A stretch of 64,000 nt of DNA from an uncultured bacterium. GTDB lineage: Bacteria; Verrucomicrobiota; Kiritimatiellia; RFP12; UBA1067. The stretch spans positions 15,758-79,757 of the forward strand of contig CACWVU010000004.1 in the NCBI GenBank assembly GCA_902764415.1. The letters are read 5' to 3'. Positions 8,652-63,860 of this stretch are shown here, piece after piece. Under the pieces are notes generated by a model that made no database searches, was not told the origin of the DNA, and saw only the letters and a list, made by a program, of their open reading frames with translations. A program made the translations under genes and the position numbers. Position 1 is the first letter of the stretch. Every line of letters starts with the position of its first letter.

Positions 8652-9088
8652 AGACACCGATCATCGTCGCCGCCGCTGCGCTCGCCGCCTGCGGCTGCAT
8701 CCAGGTCAAGACCGAAAGCGAAATCAAGCCCATCCACATCACGATGGACGTGAACCTCAAGGTGGACAAGGACCTCGACAAGGCGTTCGCCGACGAGGAC
8801 CAGAAGAAGCCGAAGGGCAACTTCAAGGCGGTGAAGGAGATGGTCGACCGGCATGCGGCCGGCATCACCCGCCTCGCGCTGCTCGAGGCGCGCGAAGGCG
8901 CGACCGACGACGACCGGCTCCTGATCGCCGAGGAGAACGCCTCGCGGATGAAACGCTTCAGCGCCGTCGCCAAATCCAACGGCACCTCGCTCGAAACAGT
9001 CCAGAAGCGCTACGCGGCGAAGTCGCGCGAGCGCCTGCCCAACGGCTGCTGGTACGAGACCGACGACGGCCGCTGGACCCGCAAGTAG
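8648..9088 (+). CDS. YnbE-like lipoprotein fused to a YdbL (DUF1318)-like domain
   Basis: Lipobox AACGC. 'PIHITMDVNLKVDKDLD' resembles E. coli YnbE 'PITINMNVKIEHEIHIKVDKDVE'. The C-terminal ...GRWTRK resembles the YdbL C-terminus. RBS AGGAGG. Confidence 0.55.
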   Translation: MKTPIIVAAAALAACGCIQVKTESEIKPIHITMDVNLKVDKDLDKAFADEDQKKPKGNFKAVKEMVDRHAAGITRLALLEAREGATDDDRLLIAEENASRMKRFSAVAKSNGTSLETVQKRYAAKSRERLPNGCWYETDDGRWTRK

Positions 9089-9092
9089 CGGC
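9032..9092. repeat. 61-bp direct repeat, copy 1 (3' end of the ynbE-ydbL gene including its stop); att-like
   Basis: Identical to 10507-10567. Confidence 0.8.
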
Positions 9093-9139
9093 CGAGGCAT
9101 ATACACTTTTGCCTGGCGACATGCAGCACAAACGCTCCT

Positions 9140-10369
9140 TTATGACCAAAGCACAGACATTGGCACTGCCAACATCCCATTACCAAACGAAAGTGTTTCA
9201 CTTCCCGAATATAGGACGATGCCGACAAATCGGCGTCCCTTGGTCAAATGCTCGCGAAACCACTCAAGATGCCGGAAGTCATTCTTTCCGACTCCAGCAC
9301 CGGCTTTGACCTCAACACCTGCAAGATTGCCGTCTGCATCCTCAACAATGAAGTCTATCTCACGTTTGTCAATGTCGCGGTACTGGTAAAGCGAGTATTC
9401 GCCAGATAAATCGATCTGTGCGGCAAGTTCCGTAAATACAAGCGTCTCGACAATCTTGCCAGACTTGTCAGCATCGAGTTCAATGTCCTTCGTGCGCCAA
9501 TTCAGCATAGCCGCCATGAGACCGGTATCGCACATGTACCATTTCGGACGTTTGCCGATACGCGCATAGTCCGACCCTGTCCAGGCCTCCACGCTTTCGC
9601 AAAGATAGTAGCGTTCCAGCACCCCAAGATACTCCCTGTAGGTGGAACGGGAAAGTCCACACGCAGACTGAAGCGCGTTGGAATCGATATACTTCGACGA
9701 CCATGCGGCAACTGCTTTAAGCAAGTCATAGAGCGCACGCTGCCGACGTATGCGCTCATCATCCTTGATGTCTTTGGAGAACAACGACTTGACATAGTCC
9801 TGAAACCATTCGCGTCTATCCTCAGGCGACAACCTAACCACTTCGGGATATCCTCCGCGAAAGGCAAGGTCTAATACTGTTCTCTTGTCGCAGTCAGGAT
9901 ATAGGCTGTCATAGTCGTTCGCAAAGAGCCTGTCAAGAAACGTTGGCTCCACGCCCTGAATCTCGCCCTGCGCAAACGTTCTCATGCGTATGTTCTTTAC
10001 GCGTCCGGCAAGGCTCTCGTCTGTTTCCGGTGCAGAATATATGTCGGACGAACCCGTTATGACATATTGCCCCGGACGACGATTCCTGTCGACTACCAAC
10101 TTGATCTCCGAAAGGAGCTCCGGAGCCTTTTGCACCTCATCTATGACCATCGGCCCGTCACCGTCATAGCGTACAAAACTCTGCGGGTCAAGAAGCGCGG
10201 CCTCTCGAAGCCGCTTGGAATCAAGACTGCGGATTTCCACCTTGCCATCAAAGAACATTTCAAGCAATGTCGATTTGCCGCATTGCCTTGCACCAGATAT
10301 AATGACTACACGACGCGTTTTAAGCGCCTTGCCAAGAACACGAAAATTCCACCTTGTGACATTGTCCAT
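9140..10369 (-). CDS. AAA-family ATPase with a DUF4143 C-terminal domain
   Basis: Walker A GARQCGKSTL. Paralogue of 29394-30725. Lies in the AT-richer DNA between the 61-bp direct repeats. Confidence 0.75.
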   Translation of the reverse strand: MDNVTRWNFRVLGKALKTRRVVIISGARQCGKSTLLEMFFDGKVEIRSLDSKRLREAALLDPQSFVRYDGDGPMVIDEVQKAPELLSEIKLVVDRNRRPGQYVITGSSDIYSAPETDESLAGRVKNIRMRTFAQGEIQGVEPTFLDRLFANDYDSLYPDCDKRTVLDLAFRGGYPEVVRLSPEDRREWFQDYVKSLFSKDIKDDERIRRQRALYDLLKAVAAWSSKYIDSNALQSACGLSRSTYREYLGVLERYYLCESVEAWTGSDYARIGKRPKWYMCDTGLMAAMLNWRTKDIELDADKSGKIVETLVFTELAAQIDLSGEYSLYQYRDIDKREIDFIVEDADGNLAGVEVKAGAGVGKNDFRHLEWFREHLTKGRRFVGIVLYSGSETLSFGNGMLAVPMSVLWS

Positions 10370-10430
10370 GTGATTTCCCTCTCCTTCTCAAGCAATTTGA
10401 AACATAGTATATCACAACCCCGATAATTTG

Positions 10431-10476
10431 TCTATTAGGAATCCGAGGATTTGTCTATTAGGAATCCGAGGATTTG
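10431..10476. repeat. perfect 23-bp tandem duplication (TCTATTAGGAATCCGAGGATTTG x2)
   Basis: Seen directly in the sequence, immediately upstream of direct-repeat copy 2. Confidence 0.85.
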
Positions 10477-10506
10477 ACAGACTCAAGTCGCCGCCGCGGC
10501 GCTCGC

Positions 10507-10567
10507 CGCCTGCCCAACGGCTGCTGGTACGAGACCGACGACGGCCGCTGGACCCGCAAGTAGCGGC
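10507..10567. repeat. 61-bp direct repeat, copy 2 (duplicate of the 3' end of the ynbE-ydbL gene); att-like
   Basis: Identical to 9032-9092. Confidence 0.8.
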
Positions 10568-10640
10568 AGCCGCCGGCCCCGGTTCCAGGACGGCTCCGGC
10601 AGGTGGTCGCAGAAGAAATGATCAGCAGCCGCATTAAACC

Positions 10641-11408
10641 CTATGGTTTTAAATGCTTTTGCTTCATTAGGTCACGCACCGAAGAATATCCTACTGATGA
10701 AACAACCAAGTGATCGATGAGTGGAATGCCAAGGTCTTTGGAGGTCGCCATTAGCTGACGCGTGGTCTCGATGTCGCCTTCGGATGGCGTGTGGTCACCG
10801 TTTGGATGGTTGTGGGCCACCACTATGCAGTGGGCATCCCATTTTATCGCTTCGCGAAAAACATCCCTCGGCATGACATAAGACGAGTTGGCCTGTCCAC
10901 GCGCAACCTTGATGGGCTCACAGATGGGAATTCGTTTGGCCGTCAAAGGCAGAACCCAGAAATTCTCAAGCACATCTCCTTCTTGCGCGATGAACTTGAA
11001 CACTTCGTATGCATCTTCGGCAGTTGCAACACGCATCTTCTTCAAATCGTCCGGTTTCACGCGAAGACGGCGATACCCGAGTTCAAATGCCGCTGCCAGT
11101 TCCAGCGCCTTGACCTTCCCAATGCCCTTGATAGGCGCTTCTGGGTTCTTTTTGTTGTAGTCAGATATCTTTGCGACAAGAGTACGCCAATCGGCGGTTA
11201 CAAGGTCTTGAATGCACCCAAACGCCCGGATGAGCCGTCTTGCGAGTTCCAAGACGTCACAGCCAGGCGCACCTGTCTTGAGCAGTATCGCAAGAACGGC
11301 CTCATCCTTTAGGTCGTGCGGACTCGCCGCACGCTCCATCTGCTCGCGCGGCAGGAGTTCGCTTGAAACTCCGTTCTTCTTGAAATTGCTTTCCCGCTTC
11401 TTGACCAT
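10641..11408 (-). CDS. radC: RadC-like JAB/MPN domain protein
   Basis: HNHPNGDHTPSEGD JAMM motif and an N-terminal helix-hairpin-helix region. Last gene of the island operon. Confidence 0.8.
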   Translation of the reverse strand: MVKKRESNFKKNGVSSELLPREQMERAASPHDLKDEAVLAILLKTGAPGCDVLELARRLIRAFGCIQDLVTADWRTLVAKISDYNKKNPEAPIKGIGKVKALELAAAFELGYRRLRVKPDDLKKMRVATAEDAYEVFKFIAQEGDVLENFWVLPLTAKRIPICEPIKVARGQANSSYVMPRDVFREAIKWDAHCIVVAHNHPNGDHTPSEGDIETTRQLMATSKDLGIPLIDHLVVSSVGYSSVRDLMKQKHLKP

Positions 11409-11409
11409 A

Positions 11410-12138
11410 TTATACCTCCTCCATCGGCATGGCTATAAAATCATTAAGTTCTTTCCGCAAAATCCTCCAGCGCGGCAATCGCCTGTCCATAAGCTCTACA
11501 AACGCTCTGGAGTGGTTCGACACCTCGAAATGCGTCAGCTCATGTACGACCACATACTCAATGCATCTTGCGGGCACTCTTCCAAGCGCGGCGTTGAAAA
11601 CGATCTTGCCGCGTTTCTTAAGACAACTCGCCCACCGAGTCTTCATCTTCCTAATTTCGGTTTCGGGAAGAGCAAGCTTCAACTTCCTGCACCATCCTTT
11701 CATCTTGCCCGCCAGAGACTCACCCAACATCGCCTTCTGCCATGATTCGACGATCCTCTCCTTATGCCCTCGTGAAGCGCCCTCCCGCACGTACAACGAC
11801 AACTTGTTGCCGCCCCACGTCACCTTTTCCGTCGCATAACGATCTTCCACGACAACCAATAGTTTATACCGGCGGCCAAGACAATAAATGCTCTCTCCGC
11901 TCACATACTCCCGACGCGTCTGGCGAGGCTGGGAAAGAACAGTCTTCCGCTGGTCGCGTATCCAGCCAATCTTGGATGCAAGAAAACTTCTCAAATCGCG
12001 GTCGGAAAGATCATCTGGCGCAGAGACATGCACCCTGGCATCCGGCGGATAGATGGCAAGATGCGTGTGCTTGATCTTCTTTCGCTCGACTTCAATCTGT
12101 ATTCCGGCAACTATCATAGCATCACATCCACGGTTCAT
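11410..12138 (-). CDS. YgjP-like metal-dependent hydrolase (DUF45 / M48 family)
   Basis: HELTHFEVSNHS zinc-binding motif. Sits in the classic position downstream of hsdR. Confidence 0.75.
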   Translation of the reverse strand: MNRGCDAMIVAGIQIEVERKKIKHTHLAIYPPDARVHVSAPDDLSDRDLRSFLASKIGWIRDQRKTVLSQPRQTRREYVSGESIYCLGRRYKLLVVVEDRYATEKVTWGGNKLSLYVREGASRGHKERIVESWQKAMLGESLAGKMKGWCRKLKLALPETEIRKMKTRWASCLKKRGKIVFNAALGRVPARCIEYVVVHELTHFEVSNHSRAFVELMDRRLPRWRILRKELNDFIAMPMEEV

Positions 12139-15100
12139 CGCTCATATAGGAATCTGCATCGAACTCACCTTGGTGTTCGACGATCTGATATACGGTAAGG
12201 GGATTGAAGTCCGTGCCCTGAAGCGCATCTTCTATCGCCATCTCGACCTTTCGCCGGCGTATGGCGTTTCTTCGAAAGCCGGGCTTGGCGCTTGCTCCGA
12301 CAGCCTCGAAGACCTTGAGCGCAAGGTCAGCATCGCCGCCCAGGTTGTCGCACAGGCTACGCTTGGCCTCGGTGTCCAGGCGCGGATCTTCAACTGCCGT
12401 GTCGCCTTTCAGTTCCTTGCCCATCTTTGCGATTTCCGCAAGTAGCTTTCTGTATTCAATCTTCTCCTTGCGGTAGTCTTCGAGAAGCCTGTTAATGCGC
12501 TCAGAGAACTTGCGGTACTCGGCAGGGTTGGTCTCTTTCTTTCTGAAGATGTAGCGTCTGACGTTTGCCACAAGCGTTTCCGCGACGCCGCGTTCGCCCC
12601 CGACCTCGGACTCCACGTCGGGATCGACCGACCCTCCATCGTCTTTGTCGATTTTTATCAGATCGAGAAACGAAAGATCCTCGAGGTCGGCGAGTTTCAA
12701 CGCATGCTTGGCCGTGACGAAATTGTCGAGAAGCGATCGCATCTCGGCATCGTAGAGCTTGAGGTCCACGAAATCGCCGGCTCGCTTCATGATCGCCTCG
12801 CGCAGCATGTCGTAGTTGCGCACCTTCTCCTTTAGCGCAGCCGCCTCGGCGGGGGAGTAGCCGGCCTCGTCAGTTTCCTGCGCGATGTCGCTCCAAGCCC
12901 TTACCGCGGCGATGCAGGCCTGGTAGAAGTCTTCCCGCAGCTGCGAATCCCCGGGTCTCTGCGCTTCACCGCCAGGTTCTGCGCCTGGGCGCGTGCCGTT
13001 CTGCGCTTCGTCGCGTGCGATGAAGTAATCGCAATACTCATCGATCCCCTTCGGCGGCAGTACCGGTTCCGAAAGAATATCGCACCGTTCAAGAGCTGCT
13101 TCAAGCGCCTTGCGACCTTCTTCAAGCCGTCCCTTGAGGAGCCCCTCTACATCTTCTTTCTCAAAGTTCTTGAACGCGCCGTTGGTGTAGTCTTTGACTG
13201 CGCCCCTTATGCTCTCAAAGAGATGTTTGTAGTCGATGATGTAGCCATAGCGCTTTTTCTCCCCGTTTAGCCGGTTGACGCGGCAGATGGCCTGGAAAAG
13301 GTTGTGGTCTTCCATCTTCTTGTCGATGTAGAGATAGGTTGCGGGCGGCGCGTCAAAGCCGGTCAGCAGCTTGTCAACCACAATCAGCAGCTTCATCTTC
13401 GCCGGATGCTCGACAAACTCCTTCTTCGCCCATTCTTCGAAATCTTCGGGCGATTTTTCTCCGCGCATAGCAAGGTTCATCCTGTGCTTGTACTCGGCTT
13501 CGGTAAGCTGCTCGCCGGTGAACGCCTCGGCAAGACTTGGCTCGTCGCCACCGTAGCTCGTCACTACGGCGCAATGATCCTTCAGCGGCGAGAGAGCGTC
13601 GCTGAACATCGCCCAAAACCGATATGCCTGATACACCGACTCGCAAACCAGCATCGCATTGCCCCATCCGTCGCGGAGCGCTGGCTTGAGCCCCATGTCC
13701 ATGCAGATGTCGGTGACAATACGCTGTACGCGCTCTTTCGCCGAAAAGAGATTCTGCATCCGCGCCCAGCGCTTCTTCAGCTCTTCCTTCTTGGCGGGAA
13801 GAAGGTTCTTGGTCTTATGTTCGAAAATCGAGTCGAAAGTCACGTCTTCGGCGAGGTTCTGCTCGATGTCGCGCGCCTCATAGCGCAAATCAAGCACGAC
13901 GCCGTCCTCTACCGCCTCATCGAATTTGTAGGTGTGGATGAACGGCCCGAAATTGGCATAGCTCGTAAGCACTCCCTTCTCGCTTTTGAGAAGAGGCGTT
14001 CCCGTAAAGCCGATCAGCATTACATCTGGCCCCATGATCTTCTTCATCGCCAAGTTCATCACCCCGCCTTGCGTGCGGTGGCACTCGTCAACGAAAACGA
14101 AGATATCGCCCTTCGCCTTGAAGCCCAGCGGCAATTTCTCGGCAAGCTCCTTCAAATAAACCGCAGCCGACCTTTCACCCCGCAATCTGCGCTCGCGAGC
14201 ATCAAGCTTCTCCTTGGACCCATTCGCGCCAAATTTGTGAATCAGTGTTGTAATAAGCCGTTCACGCGATTTGTTCAACGTTGCTATCAAGTCGGCGCCA
14301 CTTGTCGCGCGATATGGCTTCTCGCCGGCCTCCTTGAAGCCGTTTGTAATCTGCTTGTCGAGTTCGTCGCGGTCGGTGATTATCACCACCCGCGCATCGG
14401 GGCGATGTTCCTTGATCCACTGCGCAAGCCAAACCATCGTAAGCGACTTGCCGGAGCCCTGCGAATGCCAGATGATGCCCGACTCCTTGCGCATGATGCG
14501 AGGCTTCGCCGCCTCCAGCGCAAAGAACTGTGCAGGTCGCATAACCTTCTTCACACCGCCGTCAAAGACGATGCCGTCGTGTATAAAGGCCAGCAACCGC
14601 TCCTTGTCAAGCATCTGTGCAAACGAGCGGTCAACGAGCGGCTTTATCTCCGCTTTGCTCCACCTCGGCACGGCGCACGGATTGCCACAAGGCTCTTTCC
14701 ACTTCAGCCAGTGTTTCTCAGGGGTGAGCGTCGTCGCATACTTCAGACCCTCAGATTCGTTGCCCGCCATCAGCAGCTGCGCAGCGGCAAAAAACGCCGG
14801 TATCTCCCCCTCTTGCTGATTGCGGTAGTTCTGGCGAATTCCCTCGGCCACGCTCACATTCGCCTTCTTTAGCTCGATCACGCAAAGGGCAATGCCATTC
14901 ACCCAGATCACGACATCAGGCCGGCGATGGCCGTTTGCCGCGACCTGCCGCCTTACAGTCACCTCCTCGGCTATGGAGAAGTTGTTTTCGAGCGGGTGTT
15001 GCCAGTCGATGAAATAAACCTGTTTCATCGGCTTCCCGGGCTCGGTCGCAATCGACATCGGGTATCTGAGGGTCAAATACACTTCTTTGTTTACGTTGTA

Positions 15101-15376
15101 GAGGTCGGCCTGGCCCGGGCATGCCATGCGCTTCGCGAGCTCGGCTATTGCACGGTCGGCACATGCGGGCTCTAGCTTTTGCTTGCAGACAAGGAACTCC
15201 TTCAGCGCCTGGCGGTCAAGGCAAGAATTCTCTCTTTCCGAAAGATCGCCCAGATAATCATAGCCAAGCTTTGTTCGCAATAGTCCAATGATGCGATCTT
15301 GAACCGCTCGTTCGGAGGCAACCACAGCGCCCGCGCCGTGGAACGAAACCTCGCCTTCAACCTTATCGTTTTGCAT
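12122..15376 (-). CDS. hsdR: type I restriction enzyme R subunit
   Basis: HsdR_N-like N-terminus, SF2 helicase motifs (GSGKSLT, FVDECHRTQGG), 1084 aa. Confidence 0.9.
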   Translation of the reverse strand: MQNDKVEGEVSFHGAGAVVASERAVQDRIIGLLRTKLGYDYLGDLSERENSCLDRQALKEFLVCKQKLEPACADRAIAELAKRMACPGQADLYNVNKEVYLTLRYPMSIATEPGKPMKQVYFIDWQHPLENNFSIAEEVTVRRQVAANGHRRPDVVIWVNGIALCVIELKKANVSVAEGIRQNYRNQQEGEIPAFFAAAQLLMAGNESEGLKYATTLTPEKHWLKWKEPCGNPCAVPRWSKAEIKPLVDRSFAQMLDKERLLAFIHDGIVFDGGVKKVMRPAQFFALEAAKPRIMRKESGIIWHSQGSGKSLTMVWLAQWIKEHRPDARVVIITDRDELDKQITNGFKEAGEKPYRATSGADLIATLNKSRERLITTLIHKFGANGSKEKLDARERRLRGERSAAVYLKELAEKLPLGFKAKGDIFVFVDECHRTQGGVMNLAMKKIMGPDVMLIGFTGTPLLKSEKGVLTSYANFGPFIHTYKFDEAVEDGVVLDLRYEARDIEQNLAEDVTFDSIFEHKTKNLLPAKKEELKKRWARMQNLFSAKERVQRIVTDICMDMGLKPALRDGWGNAMLVCESVYQAYRFWAMFSDALSPLKDHCAVVTSYGGDEPSLAEAFTGEQLTEAEYKHRMNLAMRGEKSPEDFEEWAKKEFVEHPAKMKLLIVVDKLLTGFDAPPATYLYIDKKMEDHNLFQAICRVNRLNGEKKRYGYIIDYKHLFESIRGAVKDYTNGAFKNFEKEDVEGLLKGRLEEGRKALEAALERCDILSEPVLPPKGIDEYCDYFIARDEAQNGTRPGAEPGGEAQRPGDSQLREDFYQACIAAVRAWSDIAQETDEAGYSPAEAAALKEKVRNYDMLREAIMKRAGDFVDLKLYDAEMRSLLDNFVTAKHALKLADLEDLSFLDLIKIDKDDGGSVDPDVESEVGGERGVAETLVANVRRYIFRKKETNPAEYRKFSERINRLLEDYRKEKIEYRKLLAEIAKMGKELKGDTAVEDPRLDTEAKRSLCDNLGGDADLALKVFEAVGASAKPGFRRNAIRRRKVEMAIEDALQGTDFNPLTVYQIVEHQGEFDADSYMSDEPWM
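12955..13022. repeat. GC-rich 22-24-bp tandem repeat (GTTCTGCGCYTSGSCGCGTGC x3), in-frame inside hsdR
   Basis: Same repeat family as 16015-16112 and 16276-16322. Encodes ...GAEPGGEAQRPGDSQ... Confidence 0.7.
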
Positions 15377-15389
15377 CTCTTCTCCTCCC

Positions 15390-16700
15390 TTAACTAACTG
15401 CTTGCGCCACCGCCTCGTCGATGCCGCTCAACACTGCTCCTTTGTAATCGATTTCAACCGCGCCATCATCGGCAATCAGCTGGGCAATGCGGTTTAAAAC
15501 CTGCGCCTCGTGGCGCGTCATTGCTTTCTCGCCCGGCACATACGGCCAGCCAATCGGCGCGAGCATCAGCAAATTGCCCGCCGCACACGTTTCAAATAGC
15601 TTGCCGCCCGGCTTGTAGAGCGGCGAAAAGCCCTTGTTCTGCAATGTTATCACGCGGTGCCCCGCCTCGAAGGCGCGGCGGGCGATCTCGCGCTCGCCAT
15701 GGCTGATGCATGGGCTAAGCAACACCGCGCCCTGCGCCGCCGCGCGCATGGCGGCGGTCGCCTTTTCCTCAAATTCAGGTGTTGATTTTTCCACCATCGG
15801 CTTGCCGGCGGAATCGCGGCAAATTTGCCAACCACTCGGCAACCGCCGCCGCTTGTAGGCGAAGAAAGAGCGCGAGCATTGAATCTGGCAAATAATCGGC
15901 CGCGTCAAAAGAAAGTGGTTGCCAATCGCCATAAAATGCCCCTTCGCCGGGCCGCGCCAGGGGGGAATACCGGCTCGCTCGCGAGCCGACGCAGAACCAG
16001 CCTCGCCCCAACCGGGGTTCTGCGCTTGGGCGCGCGTGCTGTCCTGCGCTTCGCCGCGCGCACGGTTCTGCGCTTCGCCGCACGTGGGGTCCTGCGCTTC
16101 GCCGCGCGCGGCGAAGTCAACCTCAATATCGCGTGCCACCTTGAAAAGTTCTAGGCAAGCCCGCTTGATGCCCAAGCGCCGCGGGTTGGCACGAATGTAG
16201 GCAATCATCTTTTCAAGCTGCCCCGCGCGAAATAGTATCAAATCAACATACCCAGGCGCCCATAACCCTACCGCCATGTTCTGCGCTTGGGCGCGTGCGT
16301 GTCCTGCGCTTGGGCGCGTGTTCCAAAGTTCCCCCGCGCGGCTTGTACTTTTCGACTTGAAGCTGCCGATGATATTGCCAAGTTTTTTCTTCTGCTGCTC
16401 CTTCACGAAGATGATGCCATGAAAATGATCGGGCATCAGCTGGCTTTCAATCACTTCAACCCCTGGCCACTGCTGAGGAATCTCGCGCCAGCATTGCTCG
16501 ACAATCAACCCGATCTCGCTTGGCTCAACCCGCCACTCCTCGCCCTCGCCGACAAGCCGCCCCAAAGCCGGCCGCGACCGATCGGCCAGCGTGATCGTGA
16601 TCATGTAAATGCAGCGCGAGGAATAGTCCCAGTTGAAGCACCGCCGTCCCATGTGGTGCTTCACCTCCTGCCTCACTTCGCTCTTATGTTTAGCGGTCAT
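15390..16700 (-). CDS. RayT/IS200-like HUH Y1 transposase domain fused to an unknown C-terminal domain, interrupted by in-frame repeats
   Basis: HuH motif MPDHFHGIIF plus LWAPGYVDLILF...YIRANPRRLG (the RayT 'W..F.DH.I...Y..NP..GL' pattern). Unknown C-terminal domain of about 200 aa. Repeat-encoded RAQAQN/GEAQD stretches. Confidence 0.6.
   Translation of the reverse strand: MTAKHKSEVRQEVKHHMGRRCFNWDYSSRCIYMITITLADRSRPALGRLVGEGEEWRVEPSEIGLIVEQCWREIPQQWPGVEVIESQLMPDHFHGIIFVKEQQKKKLGNIIGSFKSKSTSRAGELWNTRPSAGHARAQAQNMAVGLWAPGYVDLILFRAGQLEKMIAYIRANPRRLGIKRACLELFKVARDIEVDFAARGEAQDPTCGEAQNRARGEAQDSTRAQAQNPGWGEAGSASARERAGIPPWRGPAKGHFMAIGNHFLLTRPIICQIQCSRSFFAYKRRRLPSGWQICRDSAGKPMVEKSTPEFEEKATAAMRAAAQGAVLLSPCISHGEREIARRAFEAGHRVITLQNKGFSPLYKPGGKLFETCAAGNLLMLAPIGWPYVPGEKAMTRHEAQVLNRIAQLIADDGAVEIDYKGAVLSGIDEAVAQAVS
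16015..16112. repeat. GC-rich 24-bp tandem repeat x4 inside the RayT-like gene
   Basis: GGTTCTGCGCTTGGGCGCGCGTGC-type units, in frame. Confidence 0.75.
16276..16322. repeat. GC-rich 24-bp tandem repeat x2 inside the RayT-like gene (between the HuH and Tyr motifs)
   Basis: ATGTTCTGCGCTTGGGCGCGTGCGTGTCCTGCGCTTGGGCGCGTG. Confidence 0.75.
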
Positions 16701-16717
16701 GGATTGCCTCGAAACTT

Positions 16718-21585: not shown

Positions 21586-21615
21586 AGTTAGTCGGTTCCA
21601 TAGCGTAGTTCAAGA

Positions 21616-22623: not shown

Positions 22624-22626
22624 GTC

Positions 22627-23997
22627 TTATTCTCCTTTCAACCTTGTCTTACCCGTCAGCAGTTCCTGCATCATGCCGGATTTGATGCGCTCGTATTTCG
22701 CACAGTCGGCCTCAAGCGCCGCAATCTCCGCATCCATGTCTGATACCACCGCCCCAATCGCCTTCTGCTCGGCAAGAGTGGGGAAAGCAAACGCCAACCC
22801 TTCAATATCCTTTGCATTCAAATTGTTGATTGCCGACCCAGTAAGGATATCATCCAACTGCCGCCGGTAACTCTGTGATTGAAGCAGATATCCCACAAAG
22901 CATGAATCAACACTTTTTACACATCGAAATACAGCCATAAAAGCACCAAAAGTAGCTACCTCCGCTTTATGCCATACTGCCGCCTTACCAACAAGGTTTC
23001 TACTGCCGTTTGCGGCACAAATGAGTATATCCCCTTCAGTCAACTGCTGACAACCTGCTATACACTCATTCATCACATACAAAACATCATGGCAAATGAT
23101 CTGGTTGTCTTGAATATTATTAGCTCTAAGTAGCACTGTGGCGTTTGGCATTAACGTAAGTGATGATTGCTCTGGCCTGAAACTAACACCTCTAATCGAT
23201 TCACCGATCCCTCCCAGCCGCTTCACCTCCCAATCCACGGGAATGGGGCCAAGTTCAGTCTGCTTGAACTCGGCGCGTGCTGCGCCAAACCCCGGCAGGC
23301 GGGTTTTGCCGGTGAGGAGCTGCTGCATTGCACCAGTCTTGATGTTACGCTTTTTCTCGATGAGTTTCCCCAACGCCGAAATCAACTCATCGACATCCGA
23401 CAACGCCCTCGCGATCCTCCGCTGCTCGGCGAGAGGGGGAAGAGGGATTTCACTTCGCGAAAGATCGCCTATACTTATACTTGCTTGGTTAATAGCTATT
23501 TTAGCCAGCTCGCGTGCCTTGCTCCTCATGGGGGATGATGAAAGAGCATAATACAAATAGTTTGCATTGGCACTTTCGTTACACCGCAAGAGCAGAAGAT
23601 TCATCCCATGATATAACAGCTCCTTGCCATCATATAATGCAACATTCCCAATGTATGGCAAACTATTTATGTGGCTAAACAGGATATCACCGTTGCTCAA
23701 CATATAATCAGCGGGCGGCGCATCTTTTACATAACCAACGCGAGAATAATTCACAACGCCTTTTGAGATTGTCTCAATTCGAGAAATCTTATAAGAGCCA
23801 CGATTACACACCGAATAAGTAAATCCATTTTTTATTCGTGTGCAACATTCCCCCAGCCGCTTCACCTCCCAATCCACGGGAATGGGGCCGAGTTCGGTCA
23901 TCTTGAACTCTGCGCTCTCAGCGGTCTCTGCGTGAGGTTTTTCCCCGCCCGTAGCATTAGAACCGAGTTCAGCCTTTCTTGATTTCGGCGGCTTCAT
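22627..23997 (-). CDS. hsdS: type I restriction-modification specificity subunit
   Basis: Two target-recognition domains, each preceded by the conserved repeat ...TELGPIPVDWEVKRLGE... Confidence 0.9.
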   Translation of the reverse strand: MKPPKSRKAELGSNATGGEKPHAETAESAEFKMTELGPIPVDWEVKRLGECCTRIKNGFTYSVCNRGSYKISRIETISKGVVNYSRVGYVKDAPPADYMLSNGDILFSHINSLPYIGNVALYDGKELLYHGMNLLLLRCNESANANYLYYALSSSPMRSKARELAKIAINQASISIGDLSRSEIPLPPLAEQRRIARALSDVDELISALGKLIEKKRNIKTGAMQQLLTGKTRLPGFGAARAEFKQTELGPIPVDWEVKRLGGIGESIRGVSFRPEQSSLTLMPNATVLLRANNIQDNQIICHDVLYVMNECIAGCQQLTEGDILICAANGSRNLVGKAAVWHKAEVATFGAFMAVFRCVKSVDSCFVGYLLQSQSYRRQLDDILTGSAINNLNAKDIEGLAFAFPTLAEQKAIGAVVSDMDAEIAALEADCAKYERIKSGMMQELLTGKTRLKGE

Positions 23998-25076
23998 TCA
24001 CCCTCCTTTCCGCGCTCGCCCTTCTCCTTCTTGATCTCTTCTTCGAGCGCGAGGAGGTAGCGGTCGTAGTCGCTCATGAAGAGCCGGTCTTGCACGATGC
24101 GGTATTTCTCGAACTCGTTTTCAGCATGTTCTTCCGCAATTGCGGCGGTCACATTCTCGACCTGTTCAATCGTAATCGGTCCGTCCCAAATCGCCACAAA
24201 CTTGTCGAGGCGCCTCTCCCACGCCTCCATCGTCATAGGGATATGCCGAAGCGCGGCATTCTCCGCAAATTCCAGGTAGGCATTGACAAGCCTCTCAAGC
24301 ATTCCAAGTTCATCTTCGGTCAAGTAGTTCTTGGCAATGACTACGTCGCTCTTGCGAATCTTTCCATTGGGCGAAGCCGCCCAGCTACTCAGCCCCATGT
24401 GCTCCTTCGCCGCGTCGGCACGCGAAAAGATGATTTGGGCTGCCGTAAGGCCGTTGACAGCTTGGTGCATCTTGTTCTGGACTGTCGCAAAGAATCTCCG
24501 TGTCCGAAGTGCCTTGCTGTCATAGTCGATGGCAGTCGCGTAGATGTCCGTCACCTTCTGATAGAACTTACGCTCGCTCAGGCGTATTTCTCGAATATCT
24601 TCAAGGAGACGTTCAAAATATTGATTTGAAATCGGAGAACCATCCTTCATTCGAGGCTTGTCGAGAACATAGCCACGAATCGTGTACTGTGAAACGATCT
24701 GGTTGGCCCACTTTCTGAACTGCACCGCCCGCTCGTTATCTATCTTGAAGCCAAGAGCGATTATAACTTGCAAGTTGTAGTGGTTTACACGGTAGTTCTT
24801 GCCGTTGTCGGCAACTATTAAAATTTCTTTAATAGTTGACGCCTTATCAAGCTCGGCGTCTTCGTACAATTTCCGCAAATGGTAGGCGATGTTCGGCACC
24901 TCCACGCCATACACCGCCGCGAGCATTTTCTGGCTCATCCAGATATTCTCGTCTTCGTAGCGTATTTCATACCGCTCGTCGACAGCACCGACAGAGGCAA
25001 TGTAAGTAATGAACTGGGCCGCGCTCGACTTCTGAGGCTCCATGTTGTCCCAATTGCTCTTTTTCTTCTTTGCCAT
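23994..25076 (-). CDS. RhuM-family protein (often embedded in type I RM loci)
   Basis: N-terminal ...IWMSQKMLAAVYGVEVPNIAYHLRKLYEDAEL... is typical of RhuM. 4-nt overlap with hsdS. Confidence 0.65.
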   Translation of the reverse strand: MAKKKKSNWDNMEPQKSSAAQFITYIASVGAVDERYEIRYEDENIWMSQKMLAAVYGVEVPNIAYHLRKLYEDAELDKASTIKEILIVADNGKNYRVNHYNLQVIIALGFKIDNERAVQFRKWANQIVSQYTIRGYVLDKPRMKDGSPISNQYFERLLEDIREIRLSERKFYQKVTDIYATAIDYDSKALRTRRFFATVQNKMHQAVNGLTAAQIIFSRADAAKEHMGLSSWAASPNGKIRKSDVVIAKNYLTEDELGMLERLVNAYLEFAENAALRHIPMTMEAWERRLDKFVAIWDGPITIEQVENVTAAIAEEHAENEFEKYRIVQDRLFMSDYDRYLLALEEEIKKEKGERGKEGE

Positions 25077-25087
25077 TGGCTGCCTCC

Positions 25088-27421
25088 TTACGGTTTAGCG
25101 ACCTTCGCCACTATCCCCATCTCTACGAGGTGCGCCATTACCTTTCCGCGCAGGGCGGCGACATCGGCCTCGAGCGATGCGAGCGGCCTGTCGTAGCGTT
25201 CAGCGAGTGCCTTTACCTCTGCGGCGATTTGCGAGAGCGTGCGGTCAAGCTCTGCGTCGAAACGGCGGTGTAGTTCCTCTGCCCACTTGTGATGAACGAC
25301 GAGAGTCTTTACATCATCTCCTGTAAGTTCCTCGTAGATGCTCTCGATCTCCCATGCAAAGCGCCTGTCGTCCTCGCGCAGATCTTTCTTGAATAACGCT
25401 ATGCTTTTCTTTAGCTTTTCGACCTCTTCGGGCATTTCATCATCTTCGCCAAGCCCTTCGGTCAATTCGGCGAATTGCGATTCAAGGCCTTCAAGCTCTT
25501 CGACGCGCTCCAAATAGCTCTCGTATGTTTTTGCGCACCGCCCTTTTGCCACGACTTCAGGCGGCAAAAGGTCGCACTGAAGGTCGCGCCAGCCATACGA
25601 TTTCTTCTTGGGTTTTACGAGCCTGGCCTGCCAGCCATCGCGGCAGATAAGATAGCAATCATCTTGCATAGTCTCCGCCCAGTAGTTCATCAGATGTTCG
25701 TATAGGGCGTAGGGGGATGCCAGAGATTGGCTCGCACGCGAGCCAGCGCAGGACAACGCGGGCTGGCGCAAAAGTTCTTCGCCCCATTCTGCGATAATTT
25801 TCTTTGGCTCGGCACCGCGCTTGAGGCCAAGCGCCTTGCGCGTAAAATCGCCAAGCCACCGCGCACAGGCGTTCTCAAACGCATCTATCTGCCCGGCCAT
25901 TTCATCACCCTCTCGCAATTCGCCAACAATCTCTTCCTTGGGCAACGCGAGCTTTACAAAGCCCTTGCGAAGCGGCTTAAAGAGACACGCTGGGTATTTC
26001 GCCGCCTCGTCGACCGGGATACCACCCTTTAGATGGGATGTAAGATTCTGCCGAACTTCCTTGTCGGATGGTGCGACATAGCGCGGTATGTTGAGGTTGT
26101 AGTCGTTTGCCTCAATGTCGGCATACTTCACGAACTGCGCGTAGTGTGGCACGTTCTCGCCGGCGTTCCAGACGTCGACAATGCGCCTTACGTCGCTTTC
26201 GCGCAAGCGGTTCTTCGCGCCATCTTTGGCAAAACCATCTTTGGCATCGATCATAAAGACACCCTTCGATGCCGTCGCGCCTGCTTTATCGAGCACTATG
26301 ATGCAGGCGGGGATGCCCGTGCCGAAGAAAAGGTTTGGTGGCAACCCGATGATGCCCTTTATCCAATGGTGGCGCACGATGTACTTGCGTATCTCCGCCT
26401 CGGCGTTGCCACGGAACAAAACGCCATGCGGCAGAATGACGGCGGCGCGTCCGCTCGGTTTCATCGACTTCAGGATGTGCAGCAAGAAGGCATAGTCGCC
26501 GCACTTCGGCGGTGGCATGGGCGCGACCCCCTCGCCATGCCCCCAGCGCCCGAAGCGATCCTCTTCGCTCGCGCCCTTGAGCCAGCTCTTGACGGAGAAC
26601 GGAGGATTGGCAACGACATAGTCGAACGTGCAAAGCTCGCGGTCGTTGCGCTTGTGCAGGGGATCGGTCAACGTGTCGCCGTGCCTGAGGTCTGGATCGT
26701 CCACGCCATGTACGACCATCGACATGCGCGCCATGCCGATTGTGGCCACGTCCTTTTCCTGGCCTTGTATGGCGACACCCCCTTTCGCCTCCGCCGCCGC
26801 GCGAAGAAGAAGCGACCCGGACCCGCAAGTCGGATCGTAGATCGAAATCATCCTGCGCTTGTCGTCGCCGATGCCGATCACCTTCGCCATTACGCGGCTA
26901 ACTTCGGCGGGGGTGTAGAACTGCCCCTTCGACTTGCCCGACTGCGTGGCGAAGTTTTTCATCAGGTACTCGTATGCGTCGCCGATCAGGTCGTCGTCGG
27001 CAGCGCGGTTGTTAGAGAAGTCGAGGTCTTCGTCCTGGAACACGCCGATGAGTCCGCTCACCGTGTCGACGAGGTCCTTGCCCTTGCCAAGCTTCGTCTC
27101 GTCCGCGAAGTCGGCGTTGTTGACAACGCCTTCAAGGTCGTTCGCGGAGGCGATCTTGGCGAGGATCACATTCACCTTCTCGCCAATGTCCTTGCTGCCC
27201 TTGAGCTGGACAAGGTCGTCAAAGCTGCAGCCCTTCGGTAGTTCTATCAAGAGCGACTTGTCGCCCGATTTCTTCTTGTCGCTCAGGTACTTGATGAACA
27301 GCACCACCAGCACATAGTCCTTGTACTGGCTCGCGTCCATTCCGCCGCGCAGTTCGTCGCATGCTTCCCAGAGCTTTGAATATAGCTGTGATTTCTTAAT
27401 TGCCATCGCTGATACCTCCAC
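25088..27421 (-). CDS. hsdM: type I RM N6-adenine DNA methyltransferase subunit with a long coiled-coil C-terminal extension
   Basis: HsdM_N-like N-terminus, SAM motif, VVANPPFSVKSW (NPPF). 777 aa. Confidence 0.9.
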   Translation of the reverse strand: MEVSAMAIKKSQLYSKLWEACDELRGGMDASQYKDYVLVVLFIKYLSDKKKSGDKSLLIELPKGCSFDDLVQLKGSKDIGEKVNVILAKIASANDLEGVVNNADFADETKLGKGKDLVDTVSGLIGVFQDEDLDFSNNRAADDDLIGDAYEYLMKNFATQSGKSKGQFYTPAEVSRVMAKVIGIGDDKRRMISIYDPTCGSGSLLLRAAAEAKGGVAIQGQEKDVATIGMARMSMVVHGVDDPDLRHGDTLTDPLHKRNDRELCTFDYVVANPPFSVKSWLKGASEEDRFGRWGHGEGVAPMPPPKCGDYAFLLHILKSMKPSGRAAVILPHGVLFRGNAEAEIRKYIVRHHWIKGIIGLPPNLFFGTGIPACIIVLDKAGATASKGVFMIDAKDGFAKDGAKNRLRESDVRRIVDVWNAGENVPHYAQFVKYADIEANDYNLNIPRYVAPSDKEVRQNLTSHLKGGIPVDEAAKYPACLFKPLRKGFVKLALPKEEIVGELREGDEMAGQIDAFENACARWLGDFTRKALGLKRGAEPKKIIAEWGEELLRQPALSCAGSRASQSLASPYALYEHLMNYWAETMQDDCYLICRDGWQARLVKPKKKSYGWRDLQCDLLPPEVVAKGRCAKTYESYLERVEELEGLESQFAELTEGLGEDDEMPEEVEKLKKSIALFKKDLREDDRRFAWEIESIYEELTGDDVKTLVVHHKWAEELHRRFDAELDRTLSQIAAEVKALAERYDRPLASLEADVAALRGKVMAHLVEMGIVAKVAKP

Positions 27422-29144
27422 CGCTTACAGTTTGGGTAAACTGTATTGATACTTCCATGAGATTTCTCTTAAGCTCCCGCTTCAACCTCTTGATTCTCTC
27501 AAGACGCTCACGTACCGCCGATGCCACCTCTCTCGCCTTGTCACTTGCGGCCATTGGAACCGGAAGCTGCAACAGCTTCTTCACGGAAAGCGTCTGCTGA
27601 AGTCCGCTGCTTAGGCGCTTCAGCCACTTCGCACCCTCGGCATCTTCAAAATAGCCCTTAAGAAAATAGGGATCAACACCGATTGGGCGACAGACGAACA
27701 AGTTGCCATCTACGACGTAGATCTTGTTCGGTTCGTCAACCACGGCGCATTTGAATGGTGCGCCAGAACGGGAAATCACCAAATCACCCACCTTAGCCAC
27801 AAAACTTTCGCACCCGTCTGGAATCGCCGAAAGCTTCGACACCTCGTCTTCTATTACGCCGTCGGTTATGCTCTTCGGCGTCAAGTAACATATACCTGGG
27901 CTAGAGTCAGGCGGCAGAAGCAGCCTATCTAACGCTTCCTTCGGCATGACAACGCCACGACGGATCTCCTGAACCAACTCGCCAAGCGGACGCTGTCGCT
28001 CTGACTGCGAAGGTTCGGCAAGATAAACCGCAGGGTCTAGTTCGCCGTCGCGTTTGAGAATCTGGTCCTTGCTCCTCGTCACTATATCCCCGAAATTAGC
28101 AAGGTTTGCGAGATCCTTGACTATTCTCGAGATATTGAAGTTAATCCCGGATACATCGTATTGATCAGAACCGGCCACATCAAAAAGCTTCGTAGAATAG
28201 CACCCCTTCCTAAACGTCACGATAGCTATCGCAATAGACGTGCCTGGATAGACGCCTTCTGGAAACGCCACAACGCCTTCAATCATTCCACGAGCCACGA
28301 AATAGCGTCTGTACGATGCACTTTGAGCACTGCTCAATGCGGCACGTGGCATGATGACTACAGCCCGACCGCCCTCTTTCAATGCAGAAACCGCCTGTGC
28401 AGCAAAAAACCATTCAGAGGAAACAAGCGAAATCTGCGGGAAATCTGGAAATGCTTCTACGAGCGACTGCCTAACACTATTGAAATTAAGTTCACGAACA
28501 TTCAAACCAAACGGCGCATCACAATGTACCTTGTCGAATTTCGCTCGCCTTAAGAGCTTGGGATCGAAGCAGTCGGCCACATGAACCTTCCCATGCGTTC
28601 CGCGAATGAGCGCAATCAGGCCTGCATAACGAGCAATATTTTTATCAAATTCTACGCCAACAATCTCAAATGACTTGTTGTCATTCAGGGCATGGCCATA
28701 TTGCATCCACGCCATATTGACAAAAAAACCAGCGCCAGCACAAAGATCAAGACAAGCATCTCCCGGATGGATGTCAAGTAAAGCAAGCGATAGCGCATCT
28801 AACCTAACCGAATAGTTGACCTTGATATGTATTCGCTTCACATAGTATGTCTCAAAAAGGTCAACCGCATCATCCTCGGAAACCCTCCCGGCCAATTCGT
28901 AGTATTCATTCCAATGTGCGCCAATCGCAGAAACGATAGAATCCAGACAAGGCTTTGGAACATTGCAACTTGAAAGAAAACCGTCCAGGTCAGCGATGTC
29001 AGCTGACATTCCAATATGTCTAGCCCAAAGGCACAAAACCGTTAAGCCACACACCTCGTTGAACAGAGTATCCAATGCATACTTCCGCTCAATGCGATGT
29101 ATGATTTCTCCAATAATCAATATATCTTCTCTCCTGTTTTTCAT
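27396..29144 (-). CDS. second N6-adenine methyltransferase fused to a single HsdS-like target-recognition domain
   Basis: Motif I LDLCAGAGFF, motif IV-like CDAPFG, C-terminal TRD plus the conserved HsdS helix (KKLLQLPVPMAASDKAREVASAVRERLERIKRLK). The ATG at 29142-29144 is preferred over the track's TTG. 26-nt overlap with hsdM. Confidence 0.65.
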   Translation of the reverse strand: MKNRREDILIIGEIIHRIERKYALDTLFNEVCGLTVLCLWARHIGMSADIADLDGFLSSCNVPKPCLDSIVSAIGAHWNEYYELAGRVSEDDAVDLFETYYVKRIHIKVNYSVRLDALSLALLDIHPGDACLDLCAGAGFFVNMAWMQYGHALNDNKSFEIVGVEFDKNIARYAGLIALIRGTHGKVHVADCFDPKLLRRAKFDKVHCDAPFGLNVRELNFNSVRQSLVEAFPDFPQISLVSSEWFFAAQAVSALKEGGRAVVIMPRAALSSAQSASYRRYFVARGMIEGVVAFPEGVYPGTSIAIAIVTFRKGCYSTKLFDVAGSDQYDVSGINFNISRIVKDLANLANFGDIVTRSKDQILKRDGELDPAVYLAEPSQSERQRPLGELVQEIRRGVVMPKEALDRLLLPPDSSPGICYLTPKSITDGVIEDEVSKLSAIPDGCESFVAKVGDLVISRSGAPFKCAVVDEPNKIYVVDGNLFVCRPIGVDPYFLKGYFEDAEGAKWLKRLSSGLQQTLSVKKLLQLPVPMAASDKAREVASAVRERLERIKRLKRELKRNLMEVSIQFTQTVSGGGISDGN

Positions 29145-29160
29145 AATTAATTTTGCGCGT

Positions 29161-29169
29161 ATTATAGCA
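29161..29169 (-). promoter_or_regulatory. extended -10 TGCTATAATACGCG, candidate promoter of the 11-gene island operon
   Basis: About 16 nt upstream of the ATG of the MTase-TRD gene. No SD. Confidence 0.45.
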
Positions 29170-29393
29170 TATTGGCCGCACTGTGTCAAATCGGTATCTT
29201 AATACCAAATACAATGGTAGTAAAATCCTTTGCTTGCCCGTCTCAAACATACTCAATATGATATGGATTAGGTGGCCCATCAGTAACACGCGAAAGTCGG
29301 TCCAAGACCCGTGCCCTTCCGTGGAAAGGGCATGCCTAAGCCTCTATACAATACTGCCGCGAGACGGCAAAATATCACGCAAAAAATGGCGGA

Positions 29394-30725
29394 TTAGTTC
29401 TTCATGCCGATGGCGTAGAATGGCAGTGTGGTGAGTTCGCAGCGACCATTGTCGCCTGCGCGCACGGTCTGCCTGCTGAAACGTCCGGCGTCAAACCTGA
29501 TGGCCTGGTCAAGGTGTTTGTCGGCCGTCATCTGCCACAGCGACCTGAGCGAGCCCGCCGCACCGGCCTTGACCTCTATCGGCATGACGACGGAACCGTC
29601 CTCGACAACATAGTCGACCTCGGCATTGCTCTTCGCGCATTCGCGCAGCCAATAGTTCAGGCGCGGCTCTTCAAAATCGCCGCGCCGGAAAAACAGGTGC
29701 TGACCGACAAACTGCTCGGCTATGCTGCCCTCGTTGACCAGCGCAATGTCGTCCATGTCCGACAAACGCGTCCAGGTCAAGCCGTTCGCATAGTTCATCA
29801 GCCCGACATCGATGAACAGCAGCTTCCTCACCGACGGCCGCTCCTCGGCGCCGAGCGGAATACCGTTCGAGTCCGAATGCACCACCGGGCAGGCGATTCT
29901 GGCCTTTATGAACAGGTCGATTACCGACGCCACCTTGGCAGCCTTGCTTTCACGCGAATAGTTGACGAACTTGACCTTCTCTCCGACGCGGGCCGGTATG
30001 GCGCGGAACACGCTCTGCATAAGAGCAAGGTCGGCTCCGTAGGCATATTTTGCGAAATCATCTATGTATGTGTTCACTATCCTGCGGTGCACCGCCGAGA
30101 CCTCCGCGAAGTTCTGCGTGTCAAGCCACGTCTGAGTAGCCTCGGGCATGCCCCCGACAAGCATATAGCGGCGCACAAGATCCATCAGCTTCTCGTGGAC
30201 TGCATCCGAGACGCCGGCGACTACATTCTCCATTGAGATGGATTTGAACAGATATTCATCTGCGGCGGCGACAAACTCGCCGAAGGTAATCGGCCCCAGG
30301 AACATATACTCCACCCTTCCAACGGGCATAGAGAAGTTGTGCCGGGCAAGGGCGAACTCAAGAAGAGATCCTGCCGCAACGATTGGCAGGTTGGGCATTT
30401 CCTCGTAGAAATACCTCAAGGCGTCAATCGCCTCCGGAATCGCCTGAATCTCGTCAAGGAACAAGATGCCCCCGGGTGCCGTCACATCCGATGAAATCCT
30501 GTCGGATATTTCCTGGCAAATCCGCTTGGGATCAAGCGATCGAAATGCCGGTATCAAATCAAGATTCCGGTAGAGATTAATTTCACGAAGCGCGAGACCC
30601 TCGGCCAAGGCGAAATCACGTACAAGCGTTGACTTTCCAACTTGCCGAGCTCCTCGAATAACAAGAGGATGGCGATTGTGGCCTGAAAACCACTTCTTCA
30701 TGCTATTTATCGCATCTCTTTTCAT
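29394..30725 (-). CDS. AAA-family ATPase with a DUF4143 domain (paralogue of 9140-10369)
   Basis: Walker A GARQVGKSTL. At the right edge of the AT-richer island. Confidence 0.75.
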   Translation of the reverse strand: MKRDAINSMKKWFSGHNRHPLVIRGARQVGKSTLVRDFALAEGLALREINLYRNLDLIPAFRSLDPKRICQEISDRISSDVTAPGGILFLDEIQAIPEAIDALRYFYEEMPNLPIVAAGSLLEFALARHNFSMPVGRVEYMFLGPITFGEFVAAADEYLFKSISMENVVAGVSDAVHEKLMDLVRRYMLVGGMPEATQTWLDTQNFAEVSAVHRRIVNTYIDDFAKYAYGADLALMQSVFRAIPARVGEKVKFVNYSRESKAAKVASVIDLFIKARIACPVVHSDSNGIPLGAEERPSVRKLLFIDVGLMNYANGLTWTRLSDMDDIALVNEGSIAEQFVGQHLFFRRGDFEEPRLNYWLRECAKSNAEVDYVVEDGSVVMPIEVKAGAAGSLRSLWQMTADKHLDQAIRFDAGRFSRQTVRAGDNGRCELTTLPFYAIGMKN

Positions 30726-30900
30726 ATTTATCCCCTGTTTATATATTCATCATGGACAAAATAACCCCGTATTTTGTCTAGTGAGCTGACATTTTGTCGG
30801 GTATTTTATCATAATACCCAAACAAATGCAACCGCCATTTGATTGTTTAGCGGAGTTTCGTTCGGTAGTTTGACGCGATTCCGTTCGGCGGTTCGGCGGA

Positions 30901-31734: not shown

Positions 31735-31781
31735 TTCTGCCTTCCTTTCGTTTTAGTTCTTCAGGAATTTTATTTACGCGT

Positions 31782-31790
31782 ATTATACCA
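31782..31790 (-). promoter_or_regulatory. extended -10 TGGTATAATACGCG upstream of mscS
   Basis: About 45-nt leader to the mscS ATG. Heptamers CACGAAT/CACGAAC lie immediately upstream. Confidence 0.5.
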
Positions 31791-31818
31791 TATCTGCGGT
31801 TCGTGATTCGTGATTATA

Positions 31819-32052: not shown

Positions 32053-32062
32053 CCAACTATCC

Positions 32063-63384: not shown

Positions 63385-63613
63385 TTGTTCTCCTTTTTTG
63401 TTTTTGAAAAATGTCGTAATGAGTATAGTATAGCAAATCCCGGTTCTGCGCGCAACGGCGGCGCAAGTGGTTTTCTTTTAGCCGCAACCGCCTTCGCCAA
63501 GGCTGCGGTGGTCAAGAAGAACGCAAAGGTCGCAAAGTGCACCCCTGCTAGTGCATCCGCTTCGCGGACAGCCTACGGCTGGGGGATATGCGCAAACTGT
63601 CGCGGGATCCTCT

Positions 63614-63802: not shown

Positions 63803-63805
63803 GCA

Positions 63806-63850: not shown

Positions 63851-63860
63851 ATCACCGTCA

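Follow-up and report, generated by a model that had tools for sequence, protein, structure and literature searches.

We examined a 64,000-nucleotide stretch of contig CACWVU010000004.1 (the window) from an uncultured rumen bacterium of the Kiritimatiellae; homologues of the ydbL product at the locus carry the name Kiritimatiellae DUF1318 protein. About 21.8 kb of DNA lies here between the neighbouring core genes ydbL and mscS, and it comprises a single-gene cassette of the candidate defence family PDC-S01, enclosed by a 61-bp direct repeat, and a larger cargo beyond it (Table 1). The left flank, ydbL, encodes a DUF1318/YdbL-like protein of 146 aa that has a lipobox of its own (LAAC), and a YdbH-like gene overlaps the start of ydbL. 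A first-pass annotation, made from the letters of the window, had described the interval as an AT-richer island bounded by paralogous DUF4143 ATPase genes. The drop in GC content that it reported over 9.1-30.9 kb is borne out by computation (~0.50 vs ~0.68 in the flanks): we obtained 0.500 for 9096-10486 (the cassette) and 0.505 for 10583-30898 (the cargo, with 0.434 within 16718-24000), compared with 0.675 and 0.676 on the two sides. The boundary formed by paralogues is literally there but carries little weight, since the two DUF4143 proteins are only 23% identical, which makes them old members of a family and not a recent duplicate, and both belong to the very common PDC-S01 (PADLOC profile matches: gene no. 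1, E 1.5e-128; gene no. 2, E 1.6e-138; AAA_14 + DUF4143 architecture in both).

Table 1. Features of the insertion between ydbL and mscS, in window coordinates
Feature	Position	Strand	Basis or remark
ydbL-like DUF1318 lipoprotein gene, intact; left core flank	8648..9088	+	Pfam PF07027; lipobox in translation; homologue names
Repeat copy 1	9032..9094	+	Exact 61 nt 9032-9092; empty-site homology to 9094 (63 nt)
Single-gene PDC-S01 cassette, foreign, 1.39 kb	9096..10486	-	Pfam, PADLOC, TRF, promoter scan, homology limits, GC
Cassette 44-nt tail	9096-9139
AAA_14 + DUF4143 gene (PD-(D/E)XK domain), 409 aa	9140-10369	-	Pfam
Cassette promoter, predicted	-10 at 10406-10411, -35 at 10429-10434	-	Promoter scan
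Iterons, about three x 23 nt	10426-10480
27-nt copy of ydbL nt 19-45 (lipobox region); filler or scar at cassette junction	10487..10513	+	Sequence comparison
Repeat copy 2 with native ydbL-mscS spacer remnant	10507..10582	+	Copy 10507-10567; empty-site match to 10578
Strain-specific cargo, 20.3 kb, every gene on the minus strand	10583..30898	-	Pfam, PADLOC, NCBIfam
RadC	10641-11408	-
YgjP-like peptidase	11410-12138	-
HsdR	12122-15376	-	HSDR_N/SWI2_SNF2/T1R_D3
RAYT/IS200-like Y1-domain open reading frame, 436 aa	15390-16700	-	Sub-threshold, 46.5 bits vs cutoff 80
YobI-type/Tmn-like NTPase	16718-20380	-	PADLOC Tmn match
402-aa open reading frame	20377-21585	-
DUF2806 open reading frame	21616-22623	-
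HsdS	22627-23997	-	Methylase_S, two stretches
RhuM (PADLOC PDC-S05)	23994-25076	-
HsdM	25088-27421	-	HsdM_N/N6_Mtase
Second methyltransferase-specificity fusion	27396-29189	-
PDC-S01 no. 2, AAA_14+DUF4143	29394-30725	-	Adjoins mscS
mscS, right core flank	30901-31734	-	Pfam, 277 aa; convergent with ydbL at the empty site (L161)

Exactly as first described, 9032-9092 and 10507-10567 agree at all 61 positions; they comprise the final 57 nt of ydbL and 4 nt more. A search with the 61-bp core across the window returned these two copies and no other (allowing up to three mismatches; 0 expected in 100 shuffles). The repeat had been traced to the 3' end of ynbE-ydbL; the ydbL end is indeed its source, and no separate ynbE is present at the ydbH-ydbL locus. 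Foreign DNA starts 6 nt past the ydbL stop codon (AGGCATATACAC...) and ends with ...GACTCAA at 10486, where a 27-nt scrap of ydbL and then copy 2 follow. Consistent with the first-pass annotation, Pfam and a check of the open reading frames (ORFs) agree that the AAA_14+DUF4143 gene is the sole gene between the copies. The perfect 23-bp tandem duplication noted just before copy 2 lies at 10426-10476 (2.2 copies by TRF) and overlaps the predicted -35 hexamer.

Homologues of the cassette gene with 69-90% protein identity occur as lone genes in unrelated organisms and contexts: beside a Peptidase_Mx gene, after hipBA, between xseA and secA, and between metallophosphatase and sigma-70 genes. In the homologues of 79-90% protein identity, nucleotide homology (75-85%) starts inside the iterons, at 10462-10476, and stops at the stop codon or no more than 16 nt from it, at 9140-9156; for the 69% homologue the coding region alone can be aligned. 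Since nucleotide homology runs from the iterons to near the stop codon, the transferable unit would consist of iterons, promoter and gene, and the cassette is, to judge by these alignments, a discrete unit. The 23-bp tandem repeat belongs to this unit, and such iterons recur in every cassette examined, as 2-4 tandem units of 21-23 nt with a clade-specific sequence.

An empty site had been predicted in relatives, and one is found in contig L161, where CGGCCGCCGCCGGCCACAGA separates the stop codons of ydbL and the convergent mscS and the two genes are 20 nt apart. YdbL of L161 is 88% identical to that of the window, and the part of mscS present is 98.2% identical. Because mscS stands 20 nt after ydbL in this contig, the DNA between 9.1 and 30.9 kb (window ~9095-30898) is, by this comparison, inserted, with the end of ydbL regenerated. 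The repeat is single-copy at the empty site and ~63 nt are duplicated in the window, as in a target-site duplication. Comparison across species gave no empty site because the downstream neighbourhood differs: at the loci of 43 other Kiritimatiellae species there is no DUF4143 gene no. 1, mscS or clpP within 10 kb of ydbL. The ydbL gene itself is mosaic between lineages. Window 8845-8998 differs from L161 by 34 mismatches in 154 nt, and the last 96 nt (8999-9094) show no mismatch and adjoin an mscS that is 98% identical; this juxtaposition indicates that recombination took place inside ydbL. The idea that the element had supplied an unusual C-terminus to YdbL was dropped, as the empty-site allele has the identical 96 terminal nt.

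Comparison with the empty site also bears on the origin of copy 2. The 27-mer between cassette and copy 2 (10487-10513) matches ydbL of the window (8666-8692) at 26 of 27 positions, which is not a chance match, and is identical over 27/27 to the ydbL allele of other strains, including L161; it overlaps the start of copy 2 by 7 nt (CGCCTGC). Window 10507-10578 is in turn identical to the empty site at 71 of 72 positions, and the last 4 nt before the cargo (10579-10582) are common only to strains L004 and L006. On the strength of these two matches to the L161 allele, copy 2 is the original resident end of ydbL. Its identity of 95-98% in L003, L006 and L009 represents slight drift, as expected of a non-coding remnant. 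In L021 and L009, copy 2 carries the cassette-side flank CGAGG(CATATA), and this shows that the repeat copies recombine with each other or that a tandem dimer once existed.

Strain comparison separates the cassette from the cargo. All 10 of the listed contexts with the exact YdbL protein carry the DUF4143 cassette and copy 2, and in seven of the 10 the restriction-modification (R-M) island of the window comes next. In L004, L006 and L009, homology to the window ends at 10567-10582 and other cargo lies beyond: a clpP + AAA gene pair of host GC content followed by low-GC DNA in L006, the last 150 nt of clpP followed by a different low-GC block in L004, and a third block, with a DDE transposase gene, in L009. 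L021, from the same species (YdbL 98% identical), has the cassette and the repeat with cargo of the L004 type. The cargo of the window is thus absent in L004, L006, L009, L021 and L161. Cassette and repeat are constant across these strains, and the variable slot opens right after copy 2; since the cargo beyond that point differs, assembly of the region took two steps or more. At the right end, contigs with the exact MscS are all identical to the window, one of them (L012, GCA_002351765.1) over 27000-32500. Divergence sets in within the last four codons of mscS in L079 (98% identical; window 30914) and at ~30894 in the sister lineage L080 (mscS 93% identical), where mscS is followed by rpsT, a gene not present in the window.

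The 61-bp repeat had been proposed as the attachment (att) site of the 20-kb island, and this proposal fails, as the repeat brackets the 1.39-kb cassette only. The right end of the island bears no further copy, degenerate or otherwise, and the island has no terminal repeat; att-type direct repeats at both ends are therefore found for the cassette and not for the island. Of the related claim, that tandem integrations had regenerated the gene end, the build-up in at least two steps and the intact ydbL stand, and site-specific integration with an island att is unsupported.

Related cassettes were compared in metagenomic contigs, in which the close relatives represent six independent contexts. Direct repeats of local host sequence flank the cassette in four of the six, and their lengths fall in the narrow range of 61-71 nt. 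In the window the repeat comprises 61-63 nt of ydbL. In L065 and L071-L076 it is 64 nt from the 3' end of the Peptidase_Mx gene, reaching 91 nt in L065. The repeat of L162-L166 measures 71 nt and lies downstream of hipBA, and that of L167 and L168, in the xseA-secA interval, measures 66 nt and starts at the last 8 nt of xseA. At some loci the cassette and the duplicated host gene point the same way, and at others they are convergent. More distant relatives (28-53% identity) were collected from 80 metagenome loci, 57 of them testable, and scored for an exact match, 13 nt or longer, that the near-upstream region shares with the near-downstream one. Nine of the 57 have such a repeat, compared with none of the 158 shifted windows (p = 4e-6) and none of the 74 neighbouring genes used as a second control, all at least 250 aa long (p = 4e-4), so that flanking repeats are in excess across the family. 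The repeats at L091 and L106 are perfect (24 and 23 nt), lie just upstream of the iterons and ~15 nt or less from the stop codon, and include the 3' end of the neighbouring convergent gene. Repeat lengths in the distant relatives range from 13 to 216 nt, and for this reason we discarded the idea that a single 65-bp stagger applies throughout the family.

Several of the related loci have further structure. Nested repeats surround the 90%-identical cassette (L071 3814-3847 and 5735-5768; L074 5233-5332; L065 7431-7826): a 34-nt piece of an upstream 57-aa gene adjoins the outer side of the 64-nt repeat, and a module of 190-350 nt, containing a hairpin and a small minus-strand ORF, is enclosed by two additional copies of the end of the Peptidase_Mx gene. 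At the hipBA cassette, comparison of L165/L166 with L162-L164 shows that DNA variable between strains starts just where the outer, downstream repeat copy finishes, which is also the case in the window.

These results are best accounted for by a composite, horizontally acquired defence island assembled in at least two steps, in which the 61-bp repeat is the target duplication of the cassette and turnover of the cargo is a separate matter; we put the probability of this reading at about 0.6. The repeat is thus the footprint of the small cassette and not the att site of the island. We infer both the target duplication by staggered breaks and a template switch. In the first step, the 1.39-kb PDC-S01 cassette would have landed 6 nt beyond the ydbL stop codon, with breaks staggered by ~63 nt across the end of ydbL; fill-in would then duplicate ~63 nt of the target, and the cassette would come to lie between an intact ydbL and the original gene end. 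The 27-mer may have arisen when synthesis at the start of the repeat (CGCCTGC, 9032-9038) switched to the identical heptamer at 8686-8692, copied 20 more bases and was joined to the cassette. It may alternatively be what is left of a duplication of ~430 nt (8666-9094) that was later shortened by deletion between the CGCCTGC heptamers. The insertion could be catalysed by the cassette's own ATPase-nuclease, by a trans-acting factor or by host repair. In the second step, the slot between the original ydbL end and mscS would have been filled separately, in the window by the 20.3-kb Type I R-M island. Exchange of cargo would most simply proceed by homologous recombination in the conserved flanks together with local illegitimate events, of which the truncated clpP in L004/L021 and the loss of the last mscS codons in L079 may be examples.

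A number of observations weigh against a composite island with a cassette-made repeat. The evidence is metagenomic, and the empty site is known from a single metagenome contig of 1,063 nt, with a ydbL 11% diverged from that of the window. Repeats are lacking in two of the six close contexts and in 48 of the 57 distant ones, at all eight plasmid-borne homologues (0/8) and around PDC-S01 no. 2 of the window. Each cassette sequence type was found at one locus only, and there is accordingly no sign of recent transposition. The controls for the repeat excess were shifted windows and neighbouring genes, not insertions of small accessory genes, and one such insertion, the RhuM gene of L079, has no flanking repeat. 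At L114, L123 and L162 an identical core sits inside diverged homology, a pattern better fitted by recombination between a carried and a resident copy than by a fresh duplication. Terminal inverted repeats were not found in eight cassettes, where the best candidates are chance matches of 7-12 nt. The cassette protein, finally, looks in its predicted structure like a defence-type ATPase-nuclease and like no known transposase or integrase. An alignment of the family shows no variation in the Walker A, Walker B and D...EVK nuclease motifs, and for most of its length the predicted fold, a confident model (mean pLDDT 89), resembles AAA+ and STAND-type ATPases, best the Pyrococcus Walker-type ATPase 2qen and then RFC, RuvB, ORC/Cdc6 and Apaf-1/NLR proteins; weaker matches include the nuclease-bearing Card1 and Cdn1. 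With AAA_14-DUF4143 as its single gene, the cassette encodes no transposase of the DDE, HUH or serine/tyrosine type.

A more far-reaching version would treat PDC-S01 genes in general as autonomous or semi-autonomous single-gene mobile cassettes that insert beside gene 3' ends with no known transposase or integrase. The iteron array would then be the recognised end and the cassette's own ATPase-nuclease would make the staggered breaks, giving target duplications of ~23-24 nt in one clade and ~61-75 nt in another. We regard this as tentative, with the odds against it.

The spread of the cassette may also have required no dedicated enzyme. A cassette carrying a gene fragment of a former neighbour could integrate by RecA-dependent single crossover (Campbell type) or by homology-facilitated illegitimate recombination; the direct repeat would be the homology used, and the intermediate a 1,475-bp circle formed by recombination from repeat to repeat. 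Such a route agrees with repeats that are host-gene sequence, locus-specific and found in either orientation, with the sharp identical cores and diverged flanks at L114, L123 and L162, with the CGAGG(CATATA) flank at copy 2 of L021/L009 and with the mosaic ydbL. It is the main rival reading but unlikely in our view. The origin of the first repeat at each unrelated target (ydbL, Peptidase_Mx, xseA-secA and downstream of hipBA) is left unexplained, as are lengths of 61-71 nt in four independent events, and the perfect repeats of 23-24 nt without extended homology are at the limit for RecA.

The model of the first-pass annotation, tandem site-specific integration at the 3' end of ydbL, would now require a tyrosine or serine recombinase encoded elsewhere, with the cassette as a decayed cis-mobilisable remnant between attL and attR. 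Integrase-borne islands occupy gene 3' ends, and the cis-mobilisable elements (CIMEs) of the ICESt1/ICESt3 type accrete there in tandem. The window resembles both in its repeat of a gene 3' end, the regenerated gene, the existence of an empty site and the tandem build-up of the region, and at L065 and L074 three gene-end copies separate two small modules. It differs from them in that the repeat encloses 1.4 kb, no att copy lies at the far end of the island, the scar is composite and no recombinase was found. As the annotation had noted, no integrase or recombinase came to light in the sections scanned, namely the island genes, the gene calls up to 10 kb on either side and ten larger ORFs at 43.7-63.4 kb, a scan of the window that was not exhaustive; nor was a recombinase found in 8-10 kb of the alternative cargos. 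The sole recombinase-like signal in the scanned parts is the sub-threshold RAYT-like Y1 domain at 15390-16700. Copy 2 is moreover unlike an att core, because it is fused to the out-of-register 27-nt fragment from the 5' part of ydbL. Finally, homologous cassettes have unrelated repeats, in either orientation, and one attP therefore cannot explain them. On this evidence we consider the site-specific model improbable. An integron cassette is likewise not indicated, as no motif common to the repeats was seen on inspection (no formal attC model was run) and no IntI was found in the scanned sections.

The least probable explanation, which we hold to be very doubtful, is a local tandem duplication of ydbL that later decayed, with the DUF4143 gene landing independently between the copies: the 27-nt and 61-nt pieces are the expected remains of a CGCCTGC-CGCCTGC deletion in a 5'-truncated second ydbL, but foreign DNA exactly fills the interval between the copies and the arrangement recurs at other genes (4/6 close and 9/57 distant contexts vs 0/232 controls).

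Long, length-variable target duplications around a small inserted unit have a parallel in IS1549 and IS1634, whose duplications span 8-514 bp and which belong to the few DDE insertion sequences for which this is known (PMC2266710). In contrast to these elements, which have a DDE transposase and terminal inverted repeats, the cassette has neither. DUF4143 (COG1373) has been described as a PD-(D/E)XK domain of unknown function (PMC3424549). PDC-S01, an ATPase fused to a PD-(D/E)XK domain that is not validated experimentally, has been reported as the fourth most common prokaryotic defence system and as the most frequent single locus in rumen genomes (PMC12988326, PMC13356809). Both ATPase genes of the window are strong matches to the model of this candidate family (COG1373), which is also abundant in archaea. 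The literature we found on the PDC-S01/DUF4143 family makes no mention of flanking direct repeats, iterons or cassette-like mobility, and the frequent, tight flanking of PDC-S01 cassettes by long direct repeats of host sequence is out of the ordinary. As PDC-S01 is a prevalent 'defence system' in counts, evidence that it behaves as a discrete insertable unit would alter how those counts are read and would also indicate a route of insertion without a known recombinase. If the mobile-cassette proposal is true, the presence of PDC-S01 at the edges of variable slots would partly reflect selfish insertion and not defence alone. The window, with its clean pair of occupied and empty sites, is suited to testing PDC-S01 insertion.

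The island itself is an ordinary defence hotspot. Its low-GC cargo between fixed core flanks, the different content of sister strains, and the combination of a Type I R-M system with RhuM/PDC-S05, a Tmn-like NTPase and PDC-S01 are shared with defence islands at core-gene hotspots, such as the Type I hsd 'immigration control' regions. It is unlike them in that the edge of the slot is formed by a fixed, repeat-flanked cassette and a displaced original ydbL end. The cargo is a Type I R-M system, complete with HsdR, HsdM and HsdS genes together, with nested and neighbouring defence candidates, and its DNA had no match in plasmid and phage collections. Within it, hsdS contains an internal direct repeat of 64 nt at 92% identity (23213-23276 and 23852-23915), whose copies are probably the conserved regions that separate the two specificity domains. 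Such regions between HsdS specificity domains can permit domain shuffling. The RAYT-like ORF holds 24-nt tandem repeats (16016-16108 and 16277-16320), and similar units of 21-22 nt are found inside the 3' part of hsdR (12975-13017).

A RhuM gene related to that of the cargo occurs on its own in L079 (828-1932; GC 0.53), where it lies between two rnf genes (window 35833-35837), replaces a few bases of their short intergenic spacer and has 75% nucleotide identity to window 24037-25086. In L078, a contig of 1,461 nt, mscS codons 1-262 are fused in frame to ydbL from about nt 19, and the fusion continues into the 3' end of the cassette gene. This is the arrangement that inversion of the entire island (22.3 kb) would give if it took place at an inverted microhomology of 9 nt, TCGTCGCCG (8664-8672 and 30948-30956), and its ydbL breakpoint coincides with the start of the 27-nt scrap; as a single small contig, L078 could be a chimera. 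Towards the end of the window there is a HATPase_c_3 gene (60401-61441), and the GC content falls to 0.61 at the window end (62000-64000), so that this region may be the edge of another accessory region. Upstream of DUF4143 gene no. 2, at 30760-30815, lie three repeats of the GACAAAAT type, reminiscent of the TAGACAAAT iterons of cassette no. 1, and this similarity in sequence suggests that an operator logic may be common to the PDC-S01 family.

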